Virus record (IMG/VR): IMGVR_UViG_2667527592_000008
DNA length: 39,041 nt
Direction: 5' to 3' (one strand)
Origin: a virus
Taxonomy: Duplodnaviria; Heunggongvirae; Uroviricota; Caudoviricetes
Numbering within the stretch: the stretch's first letter is position 1; every line of letters begins with the position of its first letter. Made by a program: the position numbers and the translations under genes. A model generated the notes under the pieces. It saw only the letters and a program-made list of their open reading frames with translations, was not told the DNA's origin and searched no databases. Below, in pieces: positions 18,996-26,154 of the stretch.

Positions 18996-20693
18996 TTACC
19001 ATCCTCCTGAACCAAAACGCCCGCCACGGTCACGCCCGCTGCTGCGTGGGGTGTGTATCTGAAATTTTGCGCTGCGCGATACCGCCAGCGTCCACAGCAT
19101 GTGCAGACAGTCCGGGCCATCATCGTGGTCGGCTTTGGGGTAGTGGCGCAGCTGGTCAATCAGCGTCTGATGTGCCGGACTGATGCGGATCAGGCCGTTG
19201 GCCATATGCGGCTGAAGGGACTCAATACGCAGCGCTTTATCCTCCAGCGGGATGACCGGCAGCGCCGGAACCGGCACGCCCAGCGCCGCCGAACGCTCAA
19301 CCAGCACGGTACGCAGAAACTCCTGAAACTGGACGGACTCAAACGACCAGCACAGACAGTGGTATTCCCGCTGATACTTAATCACGTCTTCGATAAGTTT
19401 GTTTGGCAGACGTCGGCGGATATCGGCTTCAACCACATCCAGAATGCCGGTAAAGCGGTTAAAGCCCCCCACGAGAATGGCCGACGGGTCGCGGTTTTTG
19501 TTTTTCTTCCCGAGACTGGGGTCAACAGCACCATAAAACACCCATTCATCAAGACGGTTAACCCAGAACTTAATGCAGCCCGCAAACAGCGCATCTTCAC
19601 CGCTGACCGGGTCGTTCTGGTATTCAGAATCAAAGGTGTCATGACCGTCACGGACACGGATTTTCATCAGTGCCAGCAGGGGACGCGCCGCCCATGACAC
19701 CACCGACCCGGCGAGCATGTCGGCTTCGTTCTGTCGGTAAAGTGCCTCTGCTGCTTCCGGCTGTTTGTTGCGGATGAGTTCTTCCCACTCGTCCCACAGC
19801 TTCATATTGGCAGGCCACTGAATGACGGCCTTAAAACGGGCCGTTTTCCACATCGGGTTATTGAGTGTGCGCGACAGTACGGAGTCGTAATGCAGGATGG
19901 TTCCGATATAAATAATATCTGTTTTACCACCAGCCTCGCCCAGCGGCATCACGGTTTTGGTGAGCCAGTCATGCAGCTTGTCGCGCTGCTCCGGGTTACG
20001 CACCATCTCGTCGTTCTCGATGTCGTCGAGGATAACCAGGTCAGGACGGTACGGACCGTGGCGCAGACCACGCAGCTTTTTACCACTACCGGCAACGGTC
20101 ACCTTGATATTGTTGGCCGTGACGATGGTCCCCATACGCCAGACGCGACCCTGCCCGCACACTTCCGGGAAATCGTTTTTTAAACGGGGGTTAAATTCCA
20201 GTTCAGCCTTGATGGCTTCCAGCATCGGATAAGCCTGGTCGATACTGTCCATAATGATGACCGGATAATGCTTAATGGCCCGGATAATGGTCCACAGGGT
20301 AAACAACTGAGTCACCAGCGTGGATTTTGCTTCACCACGGGGCGCGGCGATGGCGTCGTTCTCCGGGTCCGGGCTTGCCACAACCTGTGGCAGACGGCTG
20401 AACAGGTATTTATGCAGCTCGCTTTTTGCCGGGTTGCGGACGTAGTGCGGGAAATAGTTTTCGACAAAATAATCGTAGCCCGTCACCGGGTCACAGACTG
20501 CCGCCCGGCGGGCCTGTGTGGCCTGCGGGTTTACATCGAACCCCAGACATTCAGCCTCGATGGTCTGGCGGAGGTTGGCGATGTACTCCTGCAGGCTTCT
20601 CTGAAACTCTTTAATGGAAAGTTTACGTTTTGCCACGTCACACCTGCGCTGCTTCTGCCTGCGCTTTTTCGATACGTGCGCAGGCGATATCAA
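18996..20693 (-). CDS. Terminase large subunit (Mu gp28-like)
   Basis: 565 aa ORF with ATPase-like and nuclease-like regions, followed by the portal gene. The ATG at 20693 overlaps the methyltransferase gene by 56 nt; an in-frame GTG at 20636, one base after the methyltransferase stop, is an alternative start. Confidence 0.9.
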   Translation of the reverse strand: MISPAHVSKKRRQKQRRCDVAKRKLSIKEFQRSLQEYIANLRQTIEAECLGFDVNPQATQARRAAVCDPVTGYDYFVENYFPHYVRNPAKSELHKYLFSRLPQVVASPDPENDAIAAPRGEAKSTLVTQLFTLWTIIRAIKHYPVIIMDSIDQAYPMLEAIKAELEFNPRLKNDFPEVCGQGRVWRMGTIVTANNIKVTVAGSGKKLRGLRHGPYRPDLVILDDIENDEMVRNPEQRDKLHDWLTKTVMPLGEAGGKTDIIYIGTILHYDSVLSRTLNNPMWKTARFKAVIQWPANMKLWDEWEELIRNKQPEAAEALYRQNEADMLAGSVVSWAARPLLALMKIRVRDGHDTFDSEYQNDPVSGEDALFAGCIKFWVNRLDEWVFYGAVDPSLGKKNKNRDPSAILVGGFNRFTGILDVVEADIRRRLPNKLIEDVIKYQREYHCLCWSFESVQFQEFLRTVLVERSAALGVPVPALPVIPLEDKALRIESLQPHMANGLIRISPAHQTLIDQLRHYPKADHDDGPDCLHMLWTLAVSRSAKFQIHTPRSSGRDRGGRFGSGGW

Positions 20694-21378
20694 AATACTG
20701 GTTAGTCATTTCAATGCCGGTAAACCGTCCGCCACGGGCAAGTACCGGGATGGCGGTGGTGCCGCTTCCCATAAACGGATCGAGAACGTGCGCATCCGGT
20801 GCCAGCGGTTTAACCAGCTCGGCCATCAGCTGAACCGGCTTTGCGGTCATGTGCAGTTTTTCGGACGGGACAACACGCTGCGTAATCACACCCGGGAACG
20901 GGCCACCGTGCGGACATTTGTCGAGTTTTCCGTTGCTGCCCCAGACCACATACTCGGCCTGATGCCGGAAATAGCCGGTGTGTGGCGCACGGGAAGCCTG
21001 CGTTTTATCCCAGACAACAAGACCACGCCACAGCACACCACCGGCCTGAAAAACGTCGGTCATGGTGGGAAGCTGTCGCCAGTCACTGAACACCATGACA
21101 TAACCACCGGGGCGCACAAGGCGGGCAGCCCCGGACATCCACAGGGTGCTCCAGTATGCCCAGCTGCGCTGGTCGCGGTTATCCCCGCTGAACTCGGCAT
21201 ACTGGGTGTGACCGACATACTTGTCCGAAGGGGCCATGCTGCGGTCTGATTTATGTGTGCCACCACTGCTGTAAGGCGGGTCGGTAATGACGGCATCAAA
21301 ACGTTCGGATAACGCCGGCAGCACATCAAGAACATCACCGCAATACAACGTTGCGTTACCAATAATCTGTTTTTGCAT
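20638..21378 (-). CDS. DNA methyltransferase, beta-class (probably N6-adenine; N4-cytosine not excluded)
   Basis: 246 aa with catalytic DPPY near the N-terminus and AdoMet-binding FMGSGTT near the C-terminus; the motif IV-before-I order defines beta-class amino-methyltransferases. No restriction endonuclease partner is adjacent. Confidence 0.85.
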   Translation of the reverse strand: MQKQIIGNATLYCGDVLDVLPALSERFDAVITDPPYSSGGTHKSDRSMAPSDKYVGHTQYAEFSGDNRDQRSWAYWSTLWMSGAARLVRPGGYVMVFSDWRQLPTMTDVFQAGGVLWRGLVVWDKTQASRAPHTGYFRHQAEYVVWGSNGKLDKCPHGGPFPGVITQRVVPSEKLHMTAKPVQLMAELVKPLAPDAHVLDPFMGSGTTAIPVLARGGRFTGIEMTNQYFDIACARIEKAQAEAAQV

Positions 21379-21424
21379 TACAAATCCCGAATATCAGACG
21401 GCCCGGAAAACCGGGCCGCTGTGG

Positions 21425-21925
21425 TTAACTGAAATTATCCTCAAGCTCTTTAGCGAAGCCTTCGAGCACCTCAAGAAACGGGGCATACTGTGCCGGGTGA
21501 CGCTCCTTGATGAACGCGCCGAGCCGCTGCACCACTTCCAGTGCCGTGGCGAGCCGGTCGGTTTCCGGCAGGATTTTTTTGCTGCTGGCCACCGCCTTAC
21601 TGAGACTGTCGGACAGACTCGCCAGCAGTTCGACGGACTCCTGCGGCGGGATGTCCGGGTTCTGGTTCAGCCGTTCAAGCGTCGTCTGACACTTCACCAC
21701 CAGACTGATAAGCACGGTGCGGGCGACACTTTCCAGTCCGTCACCGGCGAGCGCGTGAGCGGCCCGCAGCTTGTCCCAGTCGTCGCCGTTCTTCATCGCC
21801 TGCGTTTTCCAGCGCCGCGCGGTGTCGTGCGGCACGGCGAACTTCATGGCGACGATATCCAGCGGAAGCTGGTCAAAGATGTACCCGTTACGGACTTTGT
21901 CCCTGATATCCTGTGACCACGCCAT
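21425..21925 (-). CDS. Mu gp27-like protein (DUF1804-like; putative terminase small subunit)
   Basis: 166 aa ORF upstream of the methyltransferase and large terminase genes, in the Mu gp27 position. Confidence 0.5.
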   Translation of the reverse strand: MAWSQDIRDKVRNGYIFDQLPLDIVAMKFAVPHDTARRWKTQAMKNGDDWDKLRAAHALAGDGLESVARTVLISLVVKCQTTLERLNQNPDIPPQESVELLASLSDSLSKAVASSKKILPETDRLATALEVVQRLGAFIKERHPAQYAPFLEVLEGFAKELEDNFS

Positions 21926-22167
21926 TAAGTGTCCTTCTGAGCCTGTTCAATCCTGCGCTGAACTTCGTCGGGATTTTCAAGAACAAACACGTTTTTCCCG
22001 GTATCCAGTTCAATGACCGTGCCATCATGTGTACCGTACTGACGGTAAAAATGGGTGATGCGTTCAGCGAGCACCATGACAGCGCCAGCACCTCCTGAAC
22101 CTCTGTATTCTGTAAATCTGATAATGCTCACTGTGTCAGACCTTCGAAAAATCAGTTCTGTGAACAC
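21925..22167 (-). CDS. Hypothetical protein
   Basis: 80 aa ORF between the lipoprotein gene and the gp27-like gene, with overlapping start and stop; actual start uncertain. Confidence 0.4.
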   Translation of the reverse strand: MFTELIFRRSDTVSIIRFTEYRGSGGAGAVMVLAERITHFYRQYGTHDGTVIELDTGKNVFVLENPDEVQRRIEQAQKDT

Positions 22168-22334
22168 TGCCGGATGCCGTCAATAATCCGGCAGACCTGC
22201 GCCGCCGCGTCTAACAGCTGTCCCGTTCTGTTAATGTCTGTGCATCCCACCGGAAGCAACATCACCAGAAACAGGGCCAGAACACAGCGCGCGGCTTTAC
22301 GTGGCGTTCTGTGGGTCCAGTGCTGACGCGTCAT
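22152..22334 (-). CDS. Small lipoprotein, possible outer-membrane spanin component
   Basis: 60 aa with a hydrophobic segment followed by LLPVGC (lipobox-like); start overlaps the endolysin stop. Confidence 0.45.
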   Translation of the reverse strand: MTRQHWTHRTPRKAARCVLALFLVMLLPVGCTDINRTGQLLDAAAQVCRIIDGIRQCSQN

Positions 22335-22876
22335 ATCGCCACGCGCTCCTTCAGCCAGCCATAAACAAACGATTCGTTAGCCTCGCGTTTCTCCGCCAGT
22401 TCCAGATAGCGGTCCCCCTGCGTACAGTTCAGGGCCGTCAGCATCACCCGTTCACCGTCCTGACCGCGATTATTCAGGAAGGCGCGCAATGCACTGATGG
22501 TACGAGGCCCGATGCGTCCGTCTGCGTCCATATCCGGGTACAGCCTGCCGCGCAGATTGAACACATTCAGCCAGCGCTGAAGCATTCTGGACGCCACGGT
22601 TGGCCCCATATTCACACCGGTATCACACAGCTCTGCGGCAATATCAGGGGATAATGCGGCGACCTGGTCGAATCGCGGACCGTACCAGTAATCGGCTTCA
22701 AGGATGTCCAGCGCCTGCTCGCGGGTTAAATCGCGCATATCACCACGGTATCCGTGGGCACGGGCGACTTTTTCCGTAATGCCCCATTTGGTCGGACCGC
22801 CCTTATCATCCGGGTGATTGACATAACCACCTTCTTTGCCCAGGACTTCATCAAAAATTTTATCTTTTGATTTCAT
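22331..22876 (-). CDS. Endolysin: GH108-family lysozyme with C-terminal peptidoglycan-binding domain
   Basis: N-terminal FDEVLGKEGGYVNHPDDKGGPTKWGIT is the glycoside hydrolase 108 signature; the C-terminal half resembles PG_binding_3. Follows two small membrane-protein genes. Confidence 0.85.
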   Translation of the reverse strand: MKSKDKIFDEVLGKEGGYVNHPDDKGGPTKWGITEKVARAHGYRGDMRDLTREQALDILEADYWYGPRFDQVAALSPDIAAELCDTGVNMGPTVASRMLQRWLNVFNLRGRLYPDMDADGRIGPRTISALRAFLNNRGQDGERVMLTALNCTQGDRYLELAEKREANESFVYGWLKERVAI

Positions 22877-23162
22877 GTGGATGCCTCAGTAACGAAAGGA
22901 TTTTTGACAAATTCCCGTGCGCCCACACGATAAGCGCACAGAAAACCAGATTCAGCGCCACAACCAGCCAGCTGGAATGTGTGTACGTACCGGACAGCCA
23001 GCGGAACGGGATGATGACGTAGCCGAGCATCAGCCAGTACGCCAGCCAGGTAATCATCGGTTTATGCGCTGCACCGTGGCGGCGATACACAAACAACCCC
23101 AGCACAATGGCGAGACACAGCCAGACGTTCACGATACCGGCAAGGCTACTTTCCATTTCCAC
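22860..23162 (-). CDS. Small membrane protein with three predicted transmembrane segments (holin/antiholin candidate)
   Basis: 100 aa with three hydrophobic stretches (LAGIVNVWLCLAIVLGLFVY, MITWLAYWLMLGYVIIPF, WLVVALNLVFCALIVWAHG); immediately upstream of the endolysin gene. Confidence 0.55.
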   Translation of the reverse strand: MEMESSLAGIVNVWLCLAIVLGLFVYRRHGAAHKPMITWLAYWLMLGYVIIPFRWLSGTYTHSSWLVVALNLVFCALIVWAHGNLSKILSLLRHPHEIKR

Positions 23163-23538
23163 CCCCTCCGCCGCGCAGTCTGGAAAACAGGCCGAACAGC
23201 GATGAAATTTCCTGTTGATAAAGAAAGGTCAGTATCTTGATGGATAACGCCGAGACACCGACCGCACACAATGCATCGAGTGGCTTGTCGTTGTAGTGGG
23301 TCAGCCACTGCATCAGTGACGCAGCCACGCCAGCCCCCAGAACGCCAACCACAAACGCGACGAGCAGGTGGATAGCCATTCGCCATACCGGGATTTCTTT
23401 CTGCTGCGTGACAACAAAAAGCGCTCCGGCAAACGCGCCCACCACAACCCCGAAATCGGTATTGGTGAGAAGGCCAAACACACTGGCACCACCGATGGTG
23501 ACTGCCACAGCTCCGCCGCCTGATAAGGGTTCAGACAT
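23146..23538 (-). CDS. Small membrane protein (holin candidate), first gene of the lysis block
   Basis: Start moved to the ATG preceded by AGGAGAAA (MSEPLSGGG...); glycine/alanine-rich hydrophobic segments and a glycine-rich C-terminus. The ORF track extends to 23598. Confidence 0.55.
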   Translation of the reverse strand: MSEPLSGGGAVAVTIGGASVFGLLTNTDFGVVVGAFAGALFVVTQQKEIPVWRMAIHLLVAFVVGVLGAGVAASLMQWLTHYNDKPLDALCAVGVSALSIKILTFLYQQEISSLFGLFSRLRGGGGGNGK

Positions 23539-23674
23539 GAGTTTCTCCTGTAAATCTGAGCCACTGACGGCCCGTAAATAACACCCGGTCAAAGGCACAG
23601 AATGACTTTTGCCGGGCGCTATCCCTTAAGGTGCCTTGTGGTCTGAGTGGACAGGGTAAACGGTATGCTGTGGT

Positions 23675-23704
23675 GGGTACTGCTGGGGGTGTTCAGCACC
23701 CCCG
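23675..23704. repeat. Copy 2 of conserved palindromic element GGGTACTGCTGGGGGTGTTCAGCACCCCCG
   Basis: Directly visible; 7-bp inverted repeat GGGGGTG-TTCAG-CACCCCC. About 140 bp upstream of the first lysis gene; near-identical to the copy at 15515..15544. Confidence 0.65.
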
Positions 23705-23726
23705 GCAGGTTGATTATCTGGATGGG

Positions 23727-24014
23727 TTAAAGAGAAGCGAGTTTTAATGGTGGCTTATAACATGCCCGCGCCAGCAGGTTAGCTCTTTCCACGGCATTAC
23801 GCATTTCCCGTTCTGCGTCAATCATTCTGTTTACGGCTGACAGCACTTCATCATGATTCGTTACTGATTCCGGGCTTTGGGCCTGTTTCGCCAGGTAACT
23901 GGATAAACTGCACATTTCAGCATGTCGGCGACGGGCTGCATCCCGGGCCTTGTCTGAAAATGCGGTATATTCACCGAGTACTGCATAGTCGATATCGGTG
24001 TCAGAACGCATCAT
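23727..24014 (-). CDS. Hypothetical protein in the position of Mu C
   Basis: 95 aa ORF with a strong ribosome-binding site (AAGGAGA, seven-nucleotide spacer, ATG) immediately after the Mor-gene terminator; no recognisable helix-turn-helix. Confidence 0.5.
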   Translation of the reverse strand: MMRSDTDIDYAVLGEYTAFSDKARDAARRRHAEMCSLSSYLAKQAQSPESVTNHDEVLSAVNRMIDAEREMRNAVERANLLARACYKPPLKLASL

Positions 24015-24040
24015 TTCGTGTCTCCTTTTTTCTGAGGCCC

Positions 24041-24075
24041 ATTAATCAAAAAGCCCCACCTGGGTGGGGCTTTTC
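24041..24075 (-). terminator. Intrinsic terminator overlapping the 3' end of the Mor/C-like gene
   Basis: Minus strand reads GCCCCACC-CAGG-TGGGGC then TTTTTGATTAA, with the stop codon inside the U-tract; the plus strand also shows a T-run after the stem. Confidence 0.7.
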
Positions 24076-24509
24076 AGCGAAGTCTGTTTTTGTCGTCGGT
24101 GTATCAGTTGCCATGCGTACCGGTCTGAAATGCCGTAACGGGGACAGAGCAGTGCCAGCGCCTGCCGGTGTGAGCATCCGCCTTTTACATGCTGCTGTAA
24201 ATCAGCCATAAAACGGGTGTTACGCAGGGCACGTAACGCATGATCGCAACGGGGAATGTAAAACGGTGCGCCGCCAAGAAAACGGATCAGTTTGTTGATT
24301 TCGTCTTCGGTCAGCACGTCATGTAACAGGGCATGGACACCGCCGGTGCGTTCGGCGTGTACGCCGGTTTTACCGCTTAACGTCACGCCACCAAAAGAAC
24401 GAATCAACCGGGTCAGGGCGGGGAAGCCAATCACGCTAATCAGTTGCTGCACGGAATCGGGCAGCAGTGCCTGCGCATCGCGAAGATCTGTTTCACTGAA
24501 GGTCTGCAT
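24042..24509 (-). CDS. Mor/C-family transcriptional activator
   Basis: 155 aa; C-terminal region GGAPFYIPRCDHALRALRNTRFMADL...LCPRYGISDRYAWQLIHRRQ follows the Mor/C helix-turn-helix pattern. Located after the GemA-like gene, as Mor is in Mu. Confidence 0.8.
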   Translation of the reverse strand: MQTFSETDLRDAQALLPDSVQQLISVIGFPALTRLIRSFGGVTLSGKTGVHAERTGGVHALLHDVLTEDEINKLIRFLGGAPFYIPRCDHALRALRNTRFMADLQQHVKGGCSHRQALALLCPRYGISDRYAWQLIHRRQKQTSLKSPTQVGLFD

Positions 24510-24608
24510 GATGGCGTCTCCGGTAGTAACTTACTGTTATTATAGCCATACATGATCGCCTGTACAGACCATAAAAAACCTCCGCGTTTGCGAAGGTTTT
24601 TGTTCATA

Positions 24609-24947
24609 TTATTTTTTATTCTCGTTTATCAACACCAGGTATCCTCTGACATACTCCCATACTTTCTGGTTATCTGTTGGATGCACTTTTCGACAATCTA
24701 TGGCTTCATTTCCATAATCGCCAATGTCAGCTTGGGCTTGTGTTAAGAGAATAACCTTCCTGAGAGCGCATCCTCTGATGGTATCCTTTGAAATATCATC
24801 CCAGCCATTCATGTATGAATAAGCCAGATTACGTTGTGCCTGATAATCGCCCTGTAATGTTTTTTTGACCAAATCTTCCTCTGAATCAGAAGCATGGGAT
24901 ATCCCTGTAAAACATAAAGTCAGAATAAGTAATAACAGTTTTTTCAT
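24609..24947 (-). CDS. Secreted protein with signal peptide (AT-rich moron; loosely Sel1/TPR-like)
   Basis: 112 aa with N-terminal MKKLLLLILTLCFTGISHA signal-like segment. The gene is visibly more AT-rich than its neighbours and sits between the GemA-like and Mor-like genes. Confidence 0.6.
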   Translation of the reverse strand: MKKLLLLILTLCFTGISHASDSEEDLVKKTLQGDYQAQRNLAYSYMNGWDDISKDTIRGCALRKVILLTQAQADIGDYGNEAIDCRKVHPTDNQKVWEYVRGYLVLINENKK

Positions 24948-25743: not shown

Positions 25744-26154
25744 TCAGTATGTGAAATAGACAGTTGCCACGCCGTTATAGTGATCAAACGACACGGCGTT
25801 TACCTCATAACTGGCCGGTAGCTTCGAGCCAAGAACGTATCCGGGCCACGTTTTCCATGGAATTTCTCTGCTCTCACTGTCGCCATATACCGTACATCCC
25901 AGTGAGCCTACAGCTTCATAAGAACGCTTACCGCACGTTATGAACCCCAGATGTTGCTTACTGCCCTTAACAGAAATCGGGAGAGCACTGGCTGATGCGT
26001 TAGCAGCGTCCCGCTCCTGTTGGCTTGCGATATTCGCAGAGTTTGCAGCAGCTACAGCAGCCGTGGTCGCAGCGGCAGATGCCACAATAACTGCTGAAGC
26101 CTGCGTATGTTGGGTAATGGTTAGCAATGCCGCCACAAAAATCATTTTCTTCAC
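25744..26154 (-). CDS. Secreted protein with signal peptide, unknown function
   Basis: 136 aa; N-terminal MKKMIFVAALLTITQHTQA followed by an Ala/Ser/Thr-rich linker and a cysteine-containing C-terminal domain. Confidence 0.55.
   Translation of the reverse strand: MKKMIFVAALLTITQHTQASAVIVASAAATTAAVAAANSANIASQQERDAANASASALPISVKGSKQHLGFITCGKRSYEAVGSLGCTVYGDSESREIPWKTWPGYVLGSKLPASYEVNAVSFDHYNGVATVYFTY

Follow-up and report, generated by a model that had tools for sequence, protein, structure and literature searches.

In phage lambda, the lysis genes S, R and Rz/Rz1 are arranged in the order membrane protein(s), murein hydrolase, small lipoprotein, with tight overlaps between neighbors, and are expressed late, with a soluble endolysin that depends on the holin. 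A cassette of the same order, likewise tightly overlapped and apparently late-expressed with a soluble, holin-dependent endolysin, is carried by a tailed-phage sequence of 39,041 nucleotides (nt), IMG/VR record IMGVR_UViG_2667527592_000008, the whole of which is referred to here as the window. It differs from the lambda cassette in that two separate holin-family genes, here termed holin8 and holin3_7, take the place of one dual-start gene, in that its endolysin belongs to glycoside hydrolase family 108 (GH108) whereas that of lambda is a transglycosylase, and in that Rz is missing. Its last gene, orf60, encodes a lipoprotein-like product and is the sole unusual part of an otherwise ordinary cassette. 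On balance, we favor the reading that an apparently intact transposable prophage of Escherichia coli, similar to Mu, carries this segment as its ordinary late lysis operon, and that the outer-membrane step, if the operon provides for it, falls to an orphan lipoprotein that derives from an outer-membrane spanin subunit (o-spanin).

Several described systems resemble parts of this cassette. Phage phiP27 has the same pair of holin families upstream as the window does. It differs in having an M15 peptidase as its endolysin, and the 64-amino-acid (aa) inner-membrane spanin subunit (i-spanin) that has been proposed for it is missing from the window and from nearly all other loci with orf60. The SfV-type Rz/Rz1 pairs of SfV, 118970_sal3 and Klebsiella phage ST11-VIM1phi8.3 have a motif RSHW(S/T)HRxPRxxxKW, a hydrophobic core and a lipobox Cys that are homologous to those of orf60, and in ST11-VIM1phi8.3 the pair lies directly 3' of an endolysin gene that encodes a GH108 homolog. 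SfV-type Rz1 proteins have a proline-rich mature domain of about 70 residues overlapping a 130-aa Rz, whereas the mature orf60 product has 30 residues, is predicted to be helical, contains no proline and is unaccompanied by Rz. The window endolysin belongs to the two-domain fold family common to the GH108 muramidases Sen1395 and TtsA (PDB 6V3Z, 6V40) and to coliphage N4 gp61. TtsA differs in having been recruited for the secretion of typhoid toxin (type 10 secretion system) and in its preference for LD-cross-linked murein, while the window enzyme lies in a complete phage lysis operon.

T1 gp11, a u-spanin, and phiKT gp28, a disruptin, are single small proteins that handle the outer membrane without a two-component spanin. 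A u-spanin such as T1 gp11 requires a C-terminal transmembrane domain (TMD), which orf60 does not have. The disruptin phiKT gp28 is a cationic peptide and has no signal sequence; the mature orf60 peptide, by contrast, carries no net charge and comes after a lipoprotein signal. To our knowledge, one disruptin has been characterized so far. Roughly one in seven phages of Gram-negative hosts has no recognizable spanin, and the way in which these phages pass the outer membrane is understood only in part. The cassette of the window offers a compact and testable case of this kind, since a conserved, o-spanin-derived lipoprotein without a partner stands beside an endolysin that has a homolog of known crystal structure.

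Conservation of orf60 and its apparent descent from Rz1

In the orf60 product, a basic n-region of 16 residues and an h-region of 14 residues lead up to LLPVG-Cys31, and the mature peptide (CTDINRTGQLLDAAAQVCRIIDGIRQCSQN) is 30 residues long. On the Kyte-Doolittle scale its single hydrophobic segment spans residues 12-35, and the C-terminus is polar. It matches phrog_7528 (unknown function; E 6e-42), and has no match in Pfam or, like every other small open reading frame (ORF), in PADLOC. A word-indexed search with orf60 returned close relatives alone, in E. coli and Salmonella, and a profile search with HMMER, run exhaustively against 1.84 billion representatives, yielded a family of about ten clusters, all of 44-111 aa. 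A scan of GTDB genomes gave pattern matches among which no relative was confirmed. The family is very small and enterobacterial.

orf60 is a real gene under purifying selection. Among 66 distinct alleles from viral contigs, the ratio of nonsynonymous to synonymous substitution rates (dN/dS) is 0.18-0.28 for the whole gene and 0.08-0.17 for the mature 30 residues. Of 136 recovered copies of the gene, 126 keep the length of 60 codons. No substitution of G30, C31, C48 or C57 is seen in the family alignment, which includes members down to 35% identity, and C48 and C57 are periplasmic cysteines that could be used for disulfide linkage, as expected of an o-spanin. In an AlphaFold (AF2) model, which served for secondary structure only (predicted local distance difference test, pLDDT, 62), the signal helix is followed by another one (residues 34-59). 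The mature peptide has amphipathic character (hydrophobic moment, muH, about 0.5), no proline and a net charge of 0 (-1 in the phiP27 homolog). Among solved structures, orf60 matched designed helical repeat proteins only, an effect of composition.

The first 34 residues of orf60 are 50% identical to the SfV-type Rz1 of the Klebsiella phage (pairwise E 2e-8). When a hidden Markov model of the orf60 family was run against 13,126 ORFs, three SfV-type Rz1 proteins were recovered at E 1.5e-7 to 8e-6, with the next match at E > 1. Because the N-terminal and lipobox region is common to orf60 and Rz1, orf60 appears from these alignments to descend from an Rz1-type o-spanin gene, while encoding a different and much shorter mature peptide.

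Within the cassette, orf60 occupies the place of the spanin genes. In a survey of 100 IMG/VR viral contigs that carry a member of the orf60 family, the dominant gene order is holin8, holin3_7, endolysin (GH108 or M15 peptidase) and orf60, and in three of the four combinations of orf60 clade and endolysin type a median of 0-21 nt separates the endolysin gene from orf60. All 20 loci with the orf60 clade of the window are Mu-like, 11 with a GH108 endolysin and nine with M15. The phiP27-like clade is lambdoid, with 51 M15 and 26 GH108 loci. A distant member of the family lies 3' of a holin of the Phage_holin_3_1 family and a GH108 enzyme. In more distant holin8 cassettes, those of Cronobacter phage ENT39118 and Salmonella phage 118970_sal3, the position of orf60 is taken by an ordinary Rz/Rz1 pair, and the 57-aa ORF that precedes orf60 in phiSTEC1575-Stx2k is the same as the ORF that precedes Rz in the Stx phage GER2.

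This 57-aa ORF (phrog_4493; 3326-3499 in locus L004, 1630-1779 in locus L007), which has a C-terminal hydrophobic segment, lies directly 5' of orf60 in about 37 of the 100 loci, and may be an unrecognized small component of lambdoid lysis regions. A different occupant of the same slot was observed in the LT-IIa prophage Rac-SA53 (locus L145, 3798-4938), where the same holin pair and GH108 endolysin are followed directly by the enterotoxin genes eltIIaA and eltIIaB; no copy of orf60 was found in the Rac-SA53 record by tblastn.

The holin-family proteins and the GH108 endolysin

A reading of the window made from its sequence only had described a lysis cassette of four ORFs, in which an endolysin with GH108 and peptidoglycan-binding domains is preceded by two different small multi-pass membrane proteins. 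The four ORFs lie at the coordinates given there (Table 1), and their families and hydropathy agree with that description. Comparison with Pfam and PHROGs, by which membership in non-lysis families could have come to light, assigned the first three products to two holin families and to GH108 with PG_binding_3 in Pfam, and to holin, holin and endolysin families in PHROGs. NCBIfam gave no match for the small cassette proteins.

The holin8 protein matches PF16931 (E 5e-25; 88.4 bits against a cut-off of 26.4) and the 'holin' family phrog_198 (E 1.5e-41), and corresponds to RefSeq protein WP_001372993.1. It has four hydrophobic segments by the Kyte-Doolittle method, the first two rich in Gly and Ala, and ends in a basic, Gly-rich tail, RLRGGGGGNGK. 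The holin3_7 protein (RefSeq WP_021536556.1) matches PF05449 (E 2e-17; 63.4 bits against a cut-off of 25.4) and phrog_217, also a 'holin' family (E 2e-31). Its three TMDs, basic first loop (RRHGAAHKP) and basic C-terminal tail fit an N-out/C-in, class-I-like topology. That the two are distinct multi-pass proteins, as had been claimed, is borne out by their different Pfam families and by their four and three hydrophobic segments. Both are small proteins with TMDs and a charged tail, and their genes overlap each other or the endolysin gene, the features by which a holin is recognized. No experimental work was found in the literature on the Phage_holin_8 and Phage_holin_3_7 families, both of which are described as 'putative holins'. 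It is reasonable to suppose from their sequences that the two proteins form a pair of holin with antiholin or co-holin. The earlier suggestion of a holin/antiholin pair holds as far as both belong to putative holin families, while the pairing is a matter of inference; a dual-start motif that adds positive charge is absent from both genes.

The endolysin matches PF05838 (Glyco_hydro_108; E 4e-27), PF09374 (PG_binding_3; E 1e-26) and phrog_315 ('endolysin'), in line with the architecture first proposed for it. An N-terminal GH108 muramidase domain with the EGGY motif (E15) is followed by a C-terminal PG_binding_3 domain. Its score for the NCBIfam family 'holin-associated N-acetylmuramidase' lies under the cut-off. 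It shares 150 of 180 residues (83%) with Sen1395 (PDB 6V3Z), a protein of Salmonella Enteritidis; the stretch with the catalytic residues, EGGYVNHPDDKGGPT, is the same in both, and residues 12-47 are identical throughout. Purified Sen1395 hydrolyzes peptidoglycan, and consists of an N-terminal catalytic and a C-terminal substrate-binding domain (PMC6996933). A 15-residue Kyte-Doolittle scan of the window endolysin found no hydrophobic segment and hence neither a signal nor a signal-arrest-release (SAR) segment. Since it has no such segment, its export should depend, by analogy with the lambda paradigm, on a hole-forming holin.

A probable role of orf60 in the last step of lysis

By analogy with lambda, it is hypothesized that one or both holin-family proteins accumulate and permeabilize the inner membrane at a programmed time, and that the other may modulate the timing. 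Permeabilization would release the muramidase, which would then degrade the murein. The orf60 product, predicted to be translationally coupled to the endolysin, would be a precursor of the Sec/signal peptidase II (SPII) type, most likely lipidated at Cys31, and would be sorted to the outer membrane, given that Thr rather than Asp stands at position +2. The mature product would then be a 30-residue, amphipathic lipopeptide with two cysteines on the periplasmic face of the outer membrane, and may weaken or breach this membrane once the murein is lost, either alone or with a partner that is not recognizable as an i-spanin. In view of its descent from Rz1 and its place in the spanin slot, orf60 most likely acts in the last step of lysis, a functional step that we infer from these two features.

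A number of points weigh against this reading. An o-spanin has no activity by itself under the lambda paradigm, and a mature orf60 peptide of 30 residues cannot bridge the periplasm. The sequence-only reading had noted that no obvious i-spanin was visible, and two six-frame scans of all 39 kb of the window bear this out for the coding strand. No ORF with an N-terminal TMD and a long soluble or periplasmic domain was found, there was no second ORF with a lipobox, and the scans returned the known cassette genes and two signal-peptide ORFs of the early region and nothing else. In the orf60-bearing loci searched, tblastn with the Rz of SfV, 118970_sal3 and ENT39118 revealed no Rz homolog, and the Rz of GER2 gave no match either. 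The mature domain of orf60 shows no similarity to Rz1 in Smith-Waterman comparisons with shuffled sequences (p 0.13-0.99), and is devoid of proline. The lipobox is a further difficulty. In the orf60 clade of the window it reads LLP[V/L]GC, with Pro at -3, and fails a PROSITE-style rule; the tetrapeptide PVGC was not found in the portion of the 2018 spanin supplement text that was examined. Lipidation of the window allele is unproven because of these two facts. The lipoprotein-like ORF of 60 aa that was first noted after the endolysin is present, with a signal segment and a Gly-Cys pair, and its lipobox is atypical. The lipoboxes of more distant family members are canonical (LVGC, LAGC, LMGC and FAGC). 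Finally, the structural model of orf60 is only moderately confident (pLDDT as given above).

Several ORFs were considered as partners and rejected. The ORFs nested in the cassette on the minus strand (30-85 aa) have no TMD. The 57-aa ORF of phiSTEC1575-Stx2k, with its C-terminal TMD, was considered as a substitute for an i-spanin; it is missing from the window, and in GER2 it precedes a normal Rz. A 144-aa protein with an N-terminal TMD, encoded downstream in locus L009, is an unlikely partner, as a similar-looking ORF (judged by eye) follows the complete Rz/Rz1 of 118970_sal3.

Within the favored reading of an orphan o-spanin-derived lipoprotein, the boldest form would have orf60 act alone, as a new kind of outer-membrane disruptor: a miniaturized lipopeptide of Rz1 origin that consists of an amphipathic helix of 30 residues with two cysteines, and whose family would have been carried, together with a single holin pair, into both Mu-like and lambdoid prophages of Enterobacteriaceae. 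We put this forward as a tentative possibility. No i-spanin, u-spanin or disruptin was detectable in the phage. If orf60 does act alone, it would represent a fourth way to breach the outer membrane, distinct from two-component spanins, u-spanins and disruptins, and the published spanin assignment of phiP27 would be corrected. If orf60 is idle in lysis, the cassette is a routine prophage lysis module that has already been annotated.

An alternative which we judge to be unlikely is that orf60 encodes an outer-membrane lipoprotein with no part in lysis, acting in superinfection exclusion, in receptor masking like Cor and Llp, or in lysogenic conversion like Bor, and lodged by chance in the gap, rich in morons, that separates lysis from packaging genes. 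Small disulfide-containing lipoproteins of prophages, such as Llp and Cor, are known exclusion factors, which counts for this alternative. Unrelated genes have been inserted between the endolysin gene and orf60 in phiP27, pPE4 and phiSTEC1575-Stx2k, and the same gap houses the toxin genes in Rac-SA53. Against this, orf60 is coupled to the endolysin gene by an overlap or a gap of at most 21 nt in the window and in most loci, and travels with the holin genes, not with tail or receptor-binding genes. It is found in both Mu-like myoviruses and lambdoid phages, whose virion modules are unrelated; its signal region derives from an Rz1 gene; and the search of PADLOC, in which orf60 had no match, also speaks against such a role.

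A second alternative, to which we give still less credence, is that orf60 is the o-spanin of a true two-component spanin whose partner is unconventional, be it a holin-family protein, an Rz supplied by the host or a cryptic prophage, or a tiny unrecognized ORF. In their survey, Kongari et al. (2018; PMC6139136) list phiP27 as having a 'separated' two-component spanin, made up of a 64-aa i-spanin and a 51-aa o-spanin. Each subunit is a singleton in its family, and their combined periplasmic length, 62 residues, is the shortest of the survey. The o-spanin coordinates given there, 20706-20861, are those of the phiP27 homolog of orf60, and the window orf60 is 53% identical to this ORF. The catalog entry itself is a point in favor of a two-component spanin, as are the conserved periplasmic cysteines, which the survey describes as typical of spanin subunits (PMC6139136), and the fact that orf60 and holin8 clades go together across exchanges of the endolysin that lies between them. 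The record-short periplasmic length tells against it. So does the nature of the proposed phiP27 i-spanin ORF (20348-20542, 64 aa), which has a TTG start, matches no PHROG, runs antisense to a 90-aa ORF whose entire length matches phrog_36812, occurs in two of the 100 orf60 loci and is missing from the window. Judged by these sequence features, the published i-spanin call is probably a mis-call and not a gene. The holin-family proteins, for their part, have short loops only, and the distant orf60 member is paired with a different holin family.

The remaining alternative, that the phage is functionally spanin-less and orf60 is a harmless or slightly useful vestige of an Rz/Rz1 pair that has lost its Rz, would agree with an Rz1 likeness limited to the N-terminal region, with the failure to find any Rz remnant and with the 91 of 677 phages of Gram-negative hosts (about 13%) listed without a spanin in the 2018 survey (PMC6139136), and is nevertheless very improbable, as the low dN/dS of the mature peptide, the three Cys kept invariant across members only 35-50% identical and the preserved length of 60 codons are unlike a decaying remnant.

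Position in a Mu-like prophage

The favored reading, a late lysis operon of a Mu-like prophage, draws its genomic side from complete E. coli genomes. The 3.2 kb at 21400-24600 of the window are 100% identical to several complete RefSeq E. coli chromosomes, and the cassette DNA is present in 112 of 5426 complete E. coli genomes. Among viral contigs, more than 270 carry the cassette. The matching records hold a Mu-like prophage with a repressor, a Ner-like helix-turn-helix protein, a MuA-type transposase, an AAA ATPase (transposase B), gp16 and Mor. After the cassette, the same prophage continues with DUF1804 (gp27-like), a DNA methyltransferase, TerL, a DUF935 portal, the gpT head protein and contractile-tail genes. 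As a separate observation, 19 of the 119 megablast places of this cassette in complete E. coli genomes lie on plasmids, so the prophage occurs on plasmid replicons too.

The cassette itself is already on record and annotated. Both membrane proteins are labeled 'phage holin family protein' in RefSeq and the enzyme 'glycoside hydrolase family 108 protein', while orf60 is a hypothetical protein (WP_000198194.1) in NZ_CP082831. In the record of strain GF75 (NZ_CP172208; 20678-20932 in locus L148), orf60 is unannotated despite identical DNA.

Table 1. Genes of the lysis cassette and its flanking features in the window
Feature	Position	Strand	Product length	Remarks
holin8 (Phage_holin_8 protein)	23146-23538	minus	130 aa	First cassette gene; AGGAG-N7-ATG start
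holin3_7 (Phage_holin_3_7 protein)	22860-23156	minus	98 aa	11-nt overlap with the holin8 gene
GH108 endolysin	22331-22876	minus	181 aa	17-nt overlap with the holin3_7 gene
orf60 (lipoprotein-like)	22152-22334	minus	60 aa	Start overlaps the endolysin stop by 4 nt (ATGA)
Acidic soluble ORF	21925..22077	minus	50 aa	Downstream boundary; phrog_7691 (unknown function), E 3e-48; no TMD
Intergenic region 5' of cassette	23539..23726	minus		188 nt; GC-rich hairpin; presumed Mor-dependent late promoter

On its downstream side, the cassette is bounded by the phrog_7691 ORF, which lies between orf60 and the DUF1804 (gp27-like) gene. Co-occurrence of this ORF with DUF1804 is confined to the Mu-like subset of the loci, and the ORF is missing from lambdoid loci with orf60. 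It is probably not part of the lysis function. Further along, a DNA methyltransferase gene (20638-21378) is inserted between the DUF1804 gp27-like gene and the large terminase gene.

On the upstream side, a gene of the Mor family is found at 24042-24509, and by analogy with Mu the late promoter in the intergenic region is presumed to be Mor-dependent. Between a 95-aa ORF (23727-24014, phrog_7152) and holin8, a 13-bp GC-rich hairpin with a 3-nt loop was observed at 23680-23708. It is not a canonical terminator, because no T-run follows 3' on the coding strand, and it may mark the boundary between middle and late operons. Two ORFs of the early/middle region that encode clear N-terminal signal peptides, of 112 aa (24609-24947) and 136 aa (25744-26154), lie on the minus strand and have no Pfam match; they may encode secreted moron products.

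At the prophage end that carries a CI-type repressor gene (34123-34785), the phage abuts an 876-aa ORF with a TTG start (34978-37608), the product of which has an autotransporter beta-domain and beta-solenoid repeats of the PIC/Hap type. The Mu-like phage may have inserted in or beside an autotransporter gene. Other strains carry this prophage in an rhs element or within another prophage.

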